Below are positions 16,362 through 20,172 of a stretch of DNA of 32,000 bases, piece by piece (position 1 is the stretch's first letter; each line of letters opens with the position of its first letter). Under the pieces are notes generated by a model. It made no database searches. It worked only from the letters and a program-made list of their open reading frames with translations, and had not been told where the DNA came from. This DNA comes from Nostoc sp. PCC 7120 = FACHB-418 (GTDB taxonomy: Bacteria > Cyanobacteriota > Cyanobacteriia > Cyanobacteriales > Nostocaceae), in NCBI RefSeq assembly GCF_000009705.1, contig NC_003272.1, forward strand, positions 5,970,001 through 6,002,000, written 5' to 3'. Position numbers and translations under genes: made by a program.

Positions 16362-16478
16362 CTGCCCCGCACAACCACAACCCGAAAACCTACGTTGTTG
16401 TTCCTGTTGTCACGCGCGTTCCTGTTGCGATTCGCCGAACGGCAATTCCTGGGATTGTTGTTCCACGAACCACCGCGC
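16362..16478 (-). repeat. DGR template repeat (TR)
   Basis: A non-coding copy of the 3' end of the 18219-19316 ORF, lying directly after the RT stop. In the target frame it reads [41 protein letters not shown] (AAC/AAT-rich). The last 23 nt (cgggttgtggttgtgcggggcag) are identical to the VR. Confidence 0.8.
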
Positions 16479-16505
16479 AGCAGTCGGTGTCGCCTAACCC
16501 ACTTT

Positions 16506-17726
16506 TTAAATTAACATGGCTAAGTCAAAAATTGAACTACTAAATATTCTCTGGCGCAATTGCCATGTGTCGCCGTGCTTTAAGTGGGCAACCCAACTTT
16601 GTGTTGATTGGGTTAAATGTTGAGCATCAATTTTACCTTCATCATAGTCTCGAAGCATTTGTCGTAATCTTTTTCTTCCTAAACGCAGATTATCACTGCG
16701 TACACGAATCTGGTTTGGTAAAATGCGAAACCCAACAAAATTCGCTCCATGTTTCGTTTCAAATAATTGGCTTTTTATTGGATGGATTTTTAGTCTTAAA
16801 CTCGTAAGATATTCTTCTATTATGACTCTAGCAGTTTCTAAAAATGCTTTGTCATCTGAAAATAAAGCAAAATCATCAACATAGCGAATATATTTAAATG
16901 CTTGAAGTTGTTCTTTGACAAAATGGTCAAAATTATTTAGGTAGACATTAGCAAAAAACTGACTCGTCAGATTGCCAATTGGTAAACCACATCTTCTTTC
17001 TAAAGGTGCTAACAGATTATCACCCGGAAAGTAGTTAATAACTGGTTCTTGGAAATTACTGTTATCAATAATTGTGTTAATTAGCCAGAGTGTATCAGGG
17101 CATTTTATTTTACGATATATAAGGTGTTTTAAAATTTTATGGTCAATACTGGGGAAATATTTACGAATATCAGCTTGGAAGACATAATGGCTAGAACGAG
17201 AAAATTGTGTAAAGCGACGCAAAGCACGATGAGAACCAAAACCCACCCGATTGGCGTAGGAGTCACTAATAAATGTGCGTTCAAATATGGGAACAATTAT
17301 GTTATAGAGGGCATGATGCACAACTCTATCACGATAGGGAGCAGCCGAAATCATACGCGGCTTGGGTTCATAAATTTGAAATGTTTTATATATTCCTGGC
17401 AAGTATGTTTTGCTTTGTAATTCTTCTTGTAGTTGAAATAATTCTGACTCTAAATTGTAATTAAACTCTAAAATATTTGGCTCTTCAGTTCATTTTATGG
17501 AACAGAATAATAAATAAAACCCAAAGATAGCCTGTATTCATTGCTGTGACTGGGTTTTAAGTTTTTGAGCCTTTCTATAAAACTGTGATTTTAATGCTCC
17601 ACCATAAAACCAACGCAAGAGCCAAATATTTTCTCGAAAGCGTTTACCTCGCTGTGCTTTCTTTGCTGCTAATAATAAGTTATCAAATGTTATAATTTCA
17701 CTCCAAAGATTGCCGTGTCTTTTCAT
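16506..17726 (-). pseudogene. DGR reverse transcriptase, interrupted by a MITE
   Basis: The N-terminal fragment is 17726-17538 ([34 protein letters not shown]...). The C-terminal fragment is 17471-16506 ([55 protein letters not shown]...[16 protein letters not shown]...[11 protein letters not shown]). Removing 153 nt restores one 355-codon ORF. Confidence 0.85.
17478..17624. mobile_element. Miniature inverted-repeat element (~147 bp) inserted in the RT gene
   Basis: The terminal inverted repeats are tggctcttcagttcatttta and taaaaccaacgcaagagcca. It is flanked by a direct AATATT at 17472-17477 and 17625-17630. It has no coding capacity and places in-frame stops in the RT. Confidence 0.7.
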
Positions 17727-17777
17727 CTATAGGACTCATATTTGATTTTTGAACAGATACGTAGTGGCGTGTCATTC

Positions 17778-18122
17778 TTATACATCTCTATTTTTTTGTT
17801 GTTTTATCCAGCCACCTAAATCCATGCCAATCTCATTTAACAGCTTTTGGGCATACTCATAACGTTCTGTTTTGATTAAGTTAAAATCTAGGAGTAGGCG
17901 AGTTTGATAACGTAAGATATCTAACTTACTATTTAAGGACTCTAAATAAATTAATTTCTGTTTAGCGTACCGTGCTAGGATTATAGCATCTAGTAAATTG
18001 TATAATTCTGTAATAATCCGATCGCCTAGTAATAACTTATGATCTCTGGGGAGGCGATTTAAAATTGGTACGTACCACTTGATTAAATCCTATGTTTTTT
18101 GTATTATAAGTAAATCACTCAT
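17778..18122 (-). pseudogene. avd: DGR accessory variability determinant (avd) with an in-frame amber codon
   Basis: The hand translation is MSDLLIIQKT*DLIKWYVPILNRLPRDHKLLLGDRIITELYNLLDAIILARYAKQKLIYLESLNSKLDILRYQTRLLLDFNLIKTERYEYAQKLLNEIGMDLGGWIKQQKNRDV. The TAG is at 18090-18092. The gene sits between the target and the RT as in canonical DGRs. Confidence 0.75.
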
Positions 18123-18218: not shown

Positions 18219-19316
18219 CTAAGAAAGCCTGCCCCGCACAACCACAACCCGACAACCCACGCGCTCGTTCCTGTCGTCGCGCGTGTTACTGAGGCGACTC
18301 AACGAACGGCAACCCCTGGGATAGTAGTTCCACGAACCACCACGCAGCAGACGTCGCTGATTATCATTATTAATTAGCCATGCACTACCATCAGTTGGTG
18401 CATTATTATAATTTTCCTGCCACTCATCCTGACACCATTCCCATATATTACCACACATATCAAATAAACCAAAGGGGTTAGCAGGAAATTCTCCCACATT
18501 GGTTGTTTGTCCTCGATATTCACCCCTGGGAGAAGAACCATAGGTGTGATTTCCGTCATAATTCGCCAACTCAGTTGTAATCGTTGCGCCACAATAAAAC
18601 GGTGTAGTCGTTCCCCCGCGACAAGCATATTCCCATTCGGCTTCACTGGGTAAGCGATATATCTGACCAGTCTTTTTAGATAGTCTGGTGCAAAATTCAA
18701 CCGCATCATCCCAGGAAATACGCTCAACGGGACGATTAGCACCTTTAAAGCGAGATGGGTCAGATTTTAAATCAATATTTACTTTATCAAAAGCGGCAAC
18801 GGCTGCCCATTGAGCTTGGGTTACGGGAAATTTCCCCATGAAAAAGGGTTGAATGGTGACGTTGTGCTGTGGACTTTCAGAATCATCTCGTCCTTCTTCA
18901 TTGTCTGGCGAACCCATGAGGAATTTACCGCCGGGAATGGACACCATCTCTAGCGTTACACCATTACCCAAGTCTTCTGCAAAAAATTCTGCACTTCCCT
19001 GACTGCGCTCAATAATTTTTCCTTGAGCGTCCACATTCACAGTTTCAAACTCAAATTTCTTGGCTTTAAGGGGTTCTTCAGATACAGGCGGTTTCTGTTT
19101 ACCAAGAATCCGTTCTTCTATAGGTGCAACATCTTCATCTCGCAGACTTAAGATATTTTGCAAGCGTTTGAGAGCCTTGCGCCTTGCTTGGGAAAGAGGA
19201 TATTGTTTTATCTTAGACAACTCTTGCTCATAAAGTTGCAGTTTTTCTTGGCGTTTTCTATGAGGTTCGAGAACTTCAAATTCAATTAAATTAGTATCAT
19301 CAATAGATAAATTCAA
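18219..19316 (-). CDS. DGR target protein, FGE-sulfatase / C-type-lectin fold; likely the 3' part of a longer caspase fusion ORF
   Basis: Has FGE-type motifs (HNVTIQPFFMGKFPVTQAQW, RPVERISWDDAVEFC, YRLPSEAEWEYACRGG, MCGNIWEWCQD, LRGGSW). The track start is a TTG. The same frame stays open, with no start codon, up to 19466. Confidence 0.8.
   Translation of the reverse strand: MNLSIDDTNLIEFEVLEPHRKRQEKLQLYEQELSKIKQYPLSQARRKALKRLQNILSLRDEDVAPIEERILGKQKPPVSEEPLKAKKFEFETVNVDAQGKIIERSQGSAEFFAEDLGNGVTLEMVSIPGGKFLMGSPDNEEGRDDSESPQHNVTIQPFFMGKFPVTQAQWAAVAAFDKVNIDLKSDPSRFKGANRPVERISWDDAVEFCTRLSKKTGQIYRLPSEAEWEYACRGGTTTPFYCGATITTELANYDGNHTYGSSPRGEYRGQTTNVGEFPANPFGLFDMCGNIWEWCQDEWQENYNNAPTDGSAWLINNDNQRRLLRGGSWNYYPRGCRSLSRLSNTRDDRNERVGCRVVVVRGRLS
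18229..18345 (-). repeat. DGR variable repeat (VR) at the 3' end of the target gene
   Basis: A 117-nt match to 16362-16478. It encodes [41 protein letters not shown]. Confidence 0.8.
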
Positions 19317-19461
19317 TATACGCCTAAATTCAAATAGATAAGGGCGGTTAGCTTCAATAATTTCTTCAATTTCTCCTTCATCACCAAAAACAATTGTCTC
19401 AAATTCCTTGCGATACTTCAGTTTGGGGTCATCCTTCGGTGATTTTGCAAGAAGAATTGGC

Positions 19462-20172
19462 TCACCTTTTTTTTAGGTAATATAATTCTGGTGTCATGTT
19501 GGGAGATTCTTCCTGCACTTTGCTTTTCGCATATTCATGCAACTCATCTACCGCAATCCAACCATCGCCATTTTTATCGGCTGCACCTTTTTCAATGCCT
19601 TCTACTAAATAATTGGTGTAAATCCCTAAGCCAAAATCATCAGACTCAAAGGCATATTGTGTAGAAGTAGAAGCCGTGAGAATCGCCCTTCCCTCACCGC
19701 CTAAATACTGTTGCAGGTTAATCTCACCACTATCCCTGGCTGTAAAACCTTTGGCAAATGCACCACTAAAACAACAATCTAAAATTACTACCTGTCGCTT
19801 AAATGTCTTGAGGCTCATCCAGCCTTGTACATCTCTAGCAGCTATAGCTGAAGCTGTCCTTAATTTTCCCTGATCTTTGCGAGTGTTACGAGTGGAAAAG
19901 TAAAAATGACCGTCTTCTACGGTGACACCATGACCAGAAAAATACAAAAGCCCCAGGTCATCTTTCTCACACTTGAAGTAAAAATCCTCGATAGCCTCGG
20001 CCATTTCTTGCCGTGAGGGATTTTCTAGGACTTTGACCGCATCAAAACCACCCATTTCAGGGTCTAGCAAAACGCGCTGCATCGCCTCAACATCCTTCAC
20101 AGCTTTTGGTAATGGTGCTAATGTCGGCTCATCATATTCACTAATCCCAATTAACAGTGCTACCTTAGCCAT
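19462..20172 (-). CDS. Caspase-like peptidase (C14, orthocaspase) with a C-terminal EF-hand
   Basis: The catalytic His is in LLYFSGHG and the catalytic Cys in VVILDCCFSGAF. The canonical EF-hand loop is DKNGDGWIAVDE (19543-19578). The ATG at 20172 (MAKVALLIGISEY) is preferred over the TTG at 20238. Confidence 0.8.
   Translation of the reverse strand: MAKVALLIGISEYDEPTLAPLPKAVKDVEAMQRVLLDPEMGGFDAVKVLENPSRQEMAEAIEDFYFKCEKDDLGLLYFSGHGVTVEDGHFYFSTRNTRKDQGKLRTASAIAARDVQGWMSLKTFKRQVVILDCCFSGAFAKGFTARDSGEINLQQYLGGEGRAILTASTSTQYAFESDDFGLGIYTNYLVEGIEKGAADKNGDGWIAVDELHEYAKSKVQEESPNMTPELYYLKKR

Follow-up and report, generated by a model that had tools for sequence, protein, structure and literature searches.

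Here, we examined a 32,000-nucleotide stretch of the Nostoc sp. PCC 7120 chromosome (NC_003272.1, positions 5,970,001 to 6,002,000), which we call the window. Its minus strand carries a diversity-generating retroelement (DGR) cassette whose reverse transcriptase (RT) gene, all5014, is interrupted by a 145-bp transposable element of the miniature inverted-repeat type (MITE). Two minus-strand open reading frames (ORFs) of 62 codons (17726-17538) and 298 codons (17402-16506), which an earlier note made from the letters alone had read as halves of a single RT, are indeed the two parts of one RT gene. The 5' part (17632-17726, minus strand) holds approximately the first 32 codons and lies within the 62-aa ORF BAB76714.1. 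The 3' part (16506-17470, minus strand) is all5014 itself (BAB76713.1), annotated at 282 aa and with its SQ and YVDD motifs intact. This 282-aa fragment is encoded on the 6,413,771-bp PCC 7120 chromosome among the neighboring ORFs BAB76711-BAB76717. Over 10.85 kb, the window and three independent PCC 7120 assemblies (L126-L128) differ by only one base, in a poly-A run.

The interrupted reverse transcriptase gene

Joining 17726-17631 to 17477-16506, which removes 153 nt, gives a 1068-nt open frame encoding a 355-aa protein. The restored protein aligns without gaps to homologues of 349-365 aa and matches the Pfam family RVT_1 (E = 2e-22). It also carries the marks of the DGR clade of RTs, namely the YVDD motif and, within ...GNLTSQFF..., the SQ dipeptide that serves as a criterion typical of DGR reverse transcriptases (PMC3521204). 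Its nearest homologues belong to cassettes made up of avd, the RT gene, and a template repeat (TR). We found no further disruption of the restored RT frame besides the MITE.

Read along the minus strand, the junctions run ...CGAGAAAATATTT, then the element from GGCTCTTGCG to GAAGAGCC, then AAATATTTTAGAG... In the RT coding frame, the 5' junction reads CGA GAA AAT ATT T before the element start GGCTCTTGCG, and at the 3' junction, the element end GAAGAGCC is followed by AAATATTT TAG. BAB76714.1 (17538-17726) is consequently a hybrid, consisting of the RT N-terminus plus 29 MITE-encoded residues and ending at a stop at 17538. Many assemblies list this hybrid ORF as a gene, and in UniRef one cluster labels it "Transposase," which is an annotation artefact.

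The site is uninterrupted in related cassettes. RT homologues at 85-89% identity read CGAGAAAATGTTTTAG there and have no insertion, which refutes the alternative that intact RTs naturally contain one at this position. Among 5.8 billion protein clusters, we found no uninterrupted RT more than 89% identical; no empty allele is known from the species to which PCC 7120 belongs. On the RT tree, the branch leading to PCC 7120 carries 40 synonymous and 11 non-synonymous single-codon changes, which is no worse than its sister branches. The all5014 RT was therefore under constraint for most of its branch, until recently.

Anatomy and boundaries of the 145-bp element

We set the element boundaries by aligning the window copy and its flanks with other copies, initially those on plasmids. 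The element is a MITE related to ISL3-family insertion sequences and occupies 17479-17623 (minus strand), with 35% G+C and no long ORF, as stop codons occur in every frame. It starts with GGCTCTT and finishes with AAGAGCC. The left terminal inverted repeat (TIR), GGCTCTTGCGTTGGTTTTATGG, lies at 17602-17623 (minus strand), on the 5' side in the RT reading direction, and the right TIR, which reads GGCTCTTCAGTTCATTTTATGG on the plus strand, forms the other end of the element at 17479-17500 (plus strand). The TIRs are 22 nt long and imperfect, matching at 18/22 positions, in agreement with the imperfect repeats of ~20 nt and the lack of an ORF described from the letters alone. Chance predicts 0.01 occurrences of the TIR pattern in the window, which contains two.

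The element is flanked by an 8-bp target-site duplication (TSD), AAATATTT. The upstream copy (17624-17631, minus strand) fits both the 8-bp rule and the AT-rich target logo described below, and the downstream copy (17471-17478, minus strand) was placed by alignment with other copies of the element. The earlier note had drawn a 147-bp element with a duplicated AATATT. Its 153-nt total and restored frame stand, and the division within that total shifts by one base on each side, to 145 bp plus 8 bp. This one-base ambiguity comes from a target sequence that is close to a palindrome.

The predicted fold of the element is stable (z = -4). Across 55 distinct copies, the consensus fold retained only the pairing of the TIR stem, and no conserved internal RNA structure was found. 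No Rfam family matches the element, even at E <= 1, and a search for promoters and terminators in or beside it gave nothing above the shuffled background.

Identical copies in PCC 7120

An exact copy of the element (145/145 positions) lies in the kdp2 operon of PCC 7120, between a kdpF-like gene and kdpC2 (contig L161, 1736-1880, from GCA_003990585.1). It is flanked on both sides by its own TSD, AATTGAAT, and the corresponding kdp site in the Anabaena variabilis lineage (contigs L165 and L166) has a single AATTGAAT and no element. The exact sibling and the empty site together point to a recent insertion and to a mobile family, both of which had been predicted for the window copy.

Further copies were recognized in short-read assemblies of PCC 7120, in which contigs either break inside the element or traverse all 145 nt into other PCC 7120 loci. 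The exit loci lie upstream of kdpC2 (BAB75942), upstream of BAB75201, and at two further flanks; beyond the kdp2 site, such contigs thus connect the identical element to three more flanks. For the third copy, the duplication GTTTTAAT is present on both flanks, in two different contigs. We thus count at least ~5 identical copies in PCC 7120, of which 2 were verified directly and ~3 are deduced from contig joins. Identical siblings within one genome indicate a recent burst, and we take the family to have multiplied recently in PCC 7120.

Several of these contigs (L153, L154, L159, L160, and L163, from PRJEB12287 and Logan samples) join unrelated loci through the identical MITE, for example, the flank of the DGR on the avd side to kdpC2 or to BAB75201. 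They are most likely misassemblies. One identical copy adjoins an excisionase/DUF3987 cluster (L154, 3249-6189: BAB75201, BAB75200, and a DUF3987 protein), which, to judge from accession numbers, is separated by only a few genes from BAB75196, the RT of PCC 7120's other DGR. This closeness is probably a coincidence.

The family across Nostocales

We scanned one genome per bacterial species with a degenerate pattern of the 22-nt TIRs; no PCC 7120 contig was among the matches, even for the window copy, so this genome seems to be missing from the set or masked in it. The scan returned 118 matching stretches, almost all of them from Nostocales and spread over roughly 40-50 genomes, in genera that include Nostoc, Trichormus, Anabaena, Halotia, Fortiea, and Fischerella. 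Near-full copies with flanks numbered 84 and measured 141-146 bp, nearly all of them exactly 145 bp. A perfect 8-bp TSD flanks 70/84 of these copies, and 6 more match at 7/8 positions, with a duplication sequence that differs from copy to copy. The target logo reconstructed from these sites is 81% A+T, A-rich in its left half and T-rich in its right half, and the site in the RT gene conforms to it. Insertions into genes are a minority (about 7/60 testable copies lie inside long open frames), and the sites are mostly intergenic. The window element shares 95.2% identity with its nearest copies in other genomes and 89.7% with the family consensus. A BLAST search of plasmids with the insert also recovered copies on two Nostoc plasmids and one Calothrix plasmid; PLSDB yielded no plasmid of PCC 7120. 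Two metagenome scans with patterns specific to the window element gave 0 matches.

Small size, lack of coding capacity, TIRs, a TSD of fixed length, dispersed copies, and filled and empty sites identify the element as a MITE.

Two side observations concern variation within the family. Position 3, in the left TIR, co-varies with its partner in the right TIR, position 144, among 55 distinct copies (C-G in 31, T-A in 14, and T-G in 7), which defines GGCTCTT and GGTTCTT sub-families, each with matched ends. Additionally, two copies in the metagenome-assembled genomes of Nostoc desertorum (L011, minus strand, from 4091) and N. indistinguendum (L046, from 3069) are interrupted ~80 nt in by a repeat that contains CCCTGCCCAAACCTTTGATGCCG twice. 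These interruptions look like a nested insertion of a different small element.

ISL3-family relatives and a possible autonomous partner

A BLAST search of plasmids with a 36-nt TIR query matched the end of a 1434-bp element on plasmid pANSO36A of Nostoc cf. commune SO-36. This element encodes an annotated ISL3-family transposase with the Pfam domains DDE_Tnp_ISL3, Zn_ribbon_ISL3, and HTH_Tnp_ISL3. Relatives at 80-83% identity occur on plasmids of Anabaena cylindrica PCC 7122 (1413 bp) and of Nostoc. The ISL3 elements of Nostocales are 1413-1437 bp long, have TIRs of the form GG(C/T)TCTT...TTTTATGG, and show perfect 8-bp TSDs in 3/5 copies examined. More generally, ISL3-family elements produce 8-bp direct repeats and have TIRs of 15-39 bp that begin with GG. 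One published ISL3 example has an 8-bp direct repeat (PMC9782665).

A candidate autonomous partner is resident in the PCC 7120 lineage, as had been anticipated. Copies of a 1416-bp ISL3 element with intact 406-aa transposases (333 bits on NCBIfam transpos_ISL3) are present on the chromosome at ~3.28 Mb (P0176) and on a plasmid (P0186). The latter is ~408 kb in size (407,634-408,101 bp), which agrees with plasmid alpha. At its left TIR, the MITE matches the left TIR of the pANSO36A element at 20/22 positions, and its right TIR agrees at 20/22 with that of the PCC 7120 1416-bp element. The two ends of the MITE best match the ends of different ISL3 variants. The similarity extends ~10-15 nt inward beyond each TIR. 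Among the 118 TIR-pattern matches, we found no insertion sequence with exactly the TIRs of the MITE and no transposase ORF; the apparently unpaired matches are MITEs cut by contig ends or by nested insertions. Overall, the MITE and the ISL3 insertion sequences of Nostocales share a common 22-nt TIR design (17-20/22 identical) and 8-bp AT-rich duplications, whereas the MITE lacks a transposase gene and measures 145 bp compared with 1.41-1.44 kb. The likeness of the TIRs and the 8-bp TSD together mark the element as an ISL3-type non-autonomous element.

The right end of the plasmid-borne 1416-bp ISL3 element is 6 bp away from a diverged copy of the MITE (L145/L149, 2744-2888; 80.7% identical to the window copy). 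Neither of the two has a clean TSD there, which suggests that the pair arose by a nested or rearranged insertion.

The remainder of the DGR cassette

The accessory gene avd, upstream of the RT gene at 17778-18122 (minus strand), is a pseudogene. Codon 11 (18090-18092) reads TAG, in place of the Tyr codon of the Nostoc CHAB 5844 homologue, and the TAG codon is present in every PCC 7120 assembly compared. With codon 11 repaired, the gene product scores 134.8 bits on NF033474 DivGenRetAVD (cut-off 80). The TR (16362-16486, minus strand) lies downstream of the RT gene and differs very little from the TR of the Nostoc CHAB 5844 DGR, although the RT there is only 85% identical. The variable repeat (VR; 18229-18353, minus strand) sits at the target gene's 3' end.

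Between VR and TR there are 21 differences, 13 of them at TR adenines and 8 at other bases (8/96 non-adenine sites, 8.3%). We assign all 8 non-adenine changes to the VR, because at each of these sites the TR agrees with the TR of CHAB 5844, and 6/8 of them alter an amino acid. In the CHAB 5844 cassette, used as a control, 16/16 VR/TR differences fall at adenines (Fisher p = 0.006 versus PCC 7120). This pattern is consistent with a former DGR in which rewriting of the VR has ceased, and the VR would then have gone without rewriting for some time. Clean excision of the element had been expected to restore the ORF, and it does restore the 355-aa RT frame. With the nonsense codon in avd and the drifted VR, however, it would restore the RT ORF and not a working DGR.

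The target gene (18219-20172, minus strand) encodes a caspase-like peptidase C14 domain together with an FGE-sulfatase/C-type lectin (CLec) domain, and its product matches FGE-sulfatase at E = 3e-59. In the window, a run of 8 A at 19467-19474 breaks it in two, leaving the caspase part as BAB76716.1 and the FGE/CLec part as all5016. In the three other assemblies, the run is 7 A long and the target is one 650-aa ORF. We considered a frameshift in the target gene as a third lesion of the strain and rejected it, since the gene is intact in those assemblies; the 8-A run is probably a reference error or a sub-strain variant. A survey of cyanobacterial DGRs lists all5014 as one of two PCC 7120 DGR RTs, with the CLec-only protein all5016 as its target, and does not mention the disruption (PMC7517822). 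The frameshift caused by the one extra A in the reference accounts for the CLec-only listing.

In the interval that separates the stop of avd from the start codon of the RT gene, PCC 7120 has ~53 extra nt (17727-17782, minus strand) that are absent in the three closest homologues, in which avd and the RT gene overlap. The 3' 27 nt of this segment, TTCAAAAATCAAATATGAGTCCTATAG, are a short repeat dispersed over 34 Nostocales plasmids, with 59 occurrences, and are similar to the "small dispersed repeats" reportedly described by Elhai et al. in 2008.

Interpretation and alternatives

We consider it very likely that a 145-bp ISL3-related MITE recently inserted into all5014, having probably been mobilized in trans by a resident ISL3 element, and that the DGR is now non-functional and decaying. 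The MITE entered at about codon 33, at an AT-rich site, with duplication of 8 bp (AAATATTT). Translation now runs 29 codons into the MITE and then stops, which leaves the first 32 codons apart from the RT's catalytic portion, and the downstream fragment is without the first ~57-73 residues of the protein. The transposase of the 1416-bp ISL3 elements in the same genome may have moved the MITE in trans, because those elements share its TIR design and 8-bp duplication. The all5014 insertion belongs to the recent burst, and the MITE would be one of at least two inactivating lesions in the cassette, leaving a DGR that is presumably silent.

Several points weigh against this interpretation or soften parts of it. 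The case for mobilization by ISL3 is drawn from the TIRs and the TSD length only, and the left TIR of the resident PCC 7120 ISL3 element matches that of the MITE at only 18/22 positions, the best left-end match being in another Nostoc strain. Loss of RT function in the truncated fragment is likewise deduced from its sequence. The copy number of ~5 is a lower bound that comes from contigs carrying window-encoded proteins, and three of the ~5 copies rest on chimeric short-read contigs. Furthermore, the VR drift of 8/96 is at least as large as the lineage-specific divergence of the RT, which is awkward for a purely recent inactivation.

In the strongest alternative, the DGR was already dead before the MITE arrived, through the avd nonsense codon or a prior loss of VR retrohoming, and the MITE is a marker of decay as opposed to its cause. 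The avd TAG is fixed in all assemblies, and the VR has accumulated 8 non-adenine substitutions while the MITE is still 100% identical to its sibling; a drifted VR beside an unchanged MITE suggests that retrohoming last took place before the MITE inserted. On the other hand, the excess of synonymous over non-synonymous changes and the otherwise undisrupted frame indicate that the RT was constrained for most of the branch, and selection on the target protein could account for the changes in the VR. We hold this order of events to be a serious possibility, if a tentative one.

Less probable is a still later date for the insertion. If the MITE were still transposing or recombining in laboratory lineages of PCC 7120, the all5014 insertion could be of the laboratory era or very recent, and the chimera-like PRJEB12287 contigs would be real MITE-mediated rearrangements or insertions polymorphic among sub-strains. 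We regard this as unlikely.

It is also conceivable that the insert is a programmed intervening sequence, either an intron-like RNA or developmentally excised DNA, that switches DGR activity. PCC 7120 is known to excise gene-interrupting elements (nifD, fdxN, and hupL) during heterocyst differentiation, direct repeats flank the insert, and its removal restores the frame exactly. However, the same 145 bp recur at many unrelated locations, most of them between genes, and every one has an 8-bp duplication of its own, a hallmark of transposition. The lack of any Rfam match, the absence of a recombinase gene nearby in the window, and an avd nonsense codon that would keep the DGR off in any case also make a programmed element very improbable.

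Finally, although short-read assemblies of PCC 7120 do give chimeric joins through the MITE and the reference has a probable one-base error nearby, we give almost no credence to an assembly or sequencing artefact such as a chimeric join via the repeat in a gene that is really intact, given that GCA_003990585.1, two JGI assemblies, and GCA_014697155.1 all carry the identical insertion with both genuine flanks, that no intact allele above 89% identity exists among the protein clusters searched, and that the 282-aa fragment is present on 58 contigs, a 6.41-Mb chromosome among them.

A recent insertion of an ISL3-type MITE into all5014 has practical consequences. PCC 7120 is the main genetic model for filamentous cyanobacteria, and its much-cited all5014 DGR appears to be broken. 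Studies of DGR function in this strain should therefore take the other cassette or repair the all5014 cassette, whose target is a 650-aa caspase-plus-CLec protein in the other assemblies. The MITE family is compact, uniform, and widespread in Nostocales, and it bears on strain variation and on misassemblies while offering a tractable ISL3/MITE pair.

Comparison with known systems

Several MITEs have been described from this group of hosts. Nezha (Zhou et al. 2008) is a MITE of ~130-170 bp in A. variabilis and PCC 7120, as later papers describe it (PMC3184786, PMC6042816). Its reference copy (NC_007413:2978180-2978317) has the 10-bp direct repeat CATTATCTAC (PMC6042816), and an ISNpu3-like element is named as its partner (PMC6042816, PMC3184786). 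Nezha and the all5014 MITE occur in the same host group and are alike small, AT-rich elements without coding capacity that have TIRs and direct repeats, and the recent mobility of both is seen from filled and empty sites in PCC 7120 versus A. variabilis. They differ, when compared by description, in that Nezha combines a 10-bp repeat with ISNpu3-like ends, whereas the all5014 MITE combines an 8-bp repeat (70/84 copies, that of the window included) with ISL3 ends. We rejected identity with Nezha on this difference in direct-repeat length, as far as the published description of Nezha extends.

Wolk, Lechno-Yossef, and Jager (2010, J Bacteriol 192:5289) surveyed the insertion sequences of PCC 7120 together with new MITEs (a-e) and interrupted or fused ORFs, as summarized in later papers (PMC3184786, PMC10969869). 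MITEs a-e come from the same genome, but their reported length there is ~224 bp, compared with 145 bp here. In Baltic Sea Anabaena, mcy genes have been inactivated by MITEs of 127-204 bp (Fewer et al. 2011, as cited in PMC10969869). These are likewise small non-autonomous elements that knock out genes of Nostocales; the gene and the strains differ. In the searchable literature, which does not cover Wolk et al. (2010), we found no published description of the 145-bp element or of the all5014 interruption. The element is thus a new, or at least not traceably described, MITE, and it brings no new mechanism, as gene disruption by MITEs in Nostocales and DGR RTs broken by insertion elements (PMC3521204) are already known.

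The closest parallel for the cassette itself is found among cyanobacterial DGRs with an inactivated RT, such as that of Acaryochloris marina MBIC11017, whose RT is interrupted by an insertion element (Schillinger et al. 2012, PMC3521204, Fig. 4). As in PCC 7120, the RT ORF there is broken by a mobile element and the TR/VR pair is still recognizable; the intruder is a full insertion element in A. marina and a 145-bp MITE in all5014. The DGRs described in PMC3521204 show VR/TR differences at adenines only, whereas the all5014 cassette combines 8/21 non-adenine differences with a broken avd.

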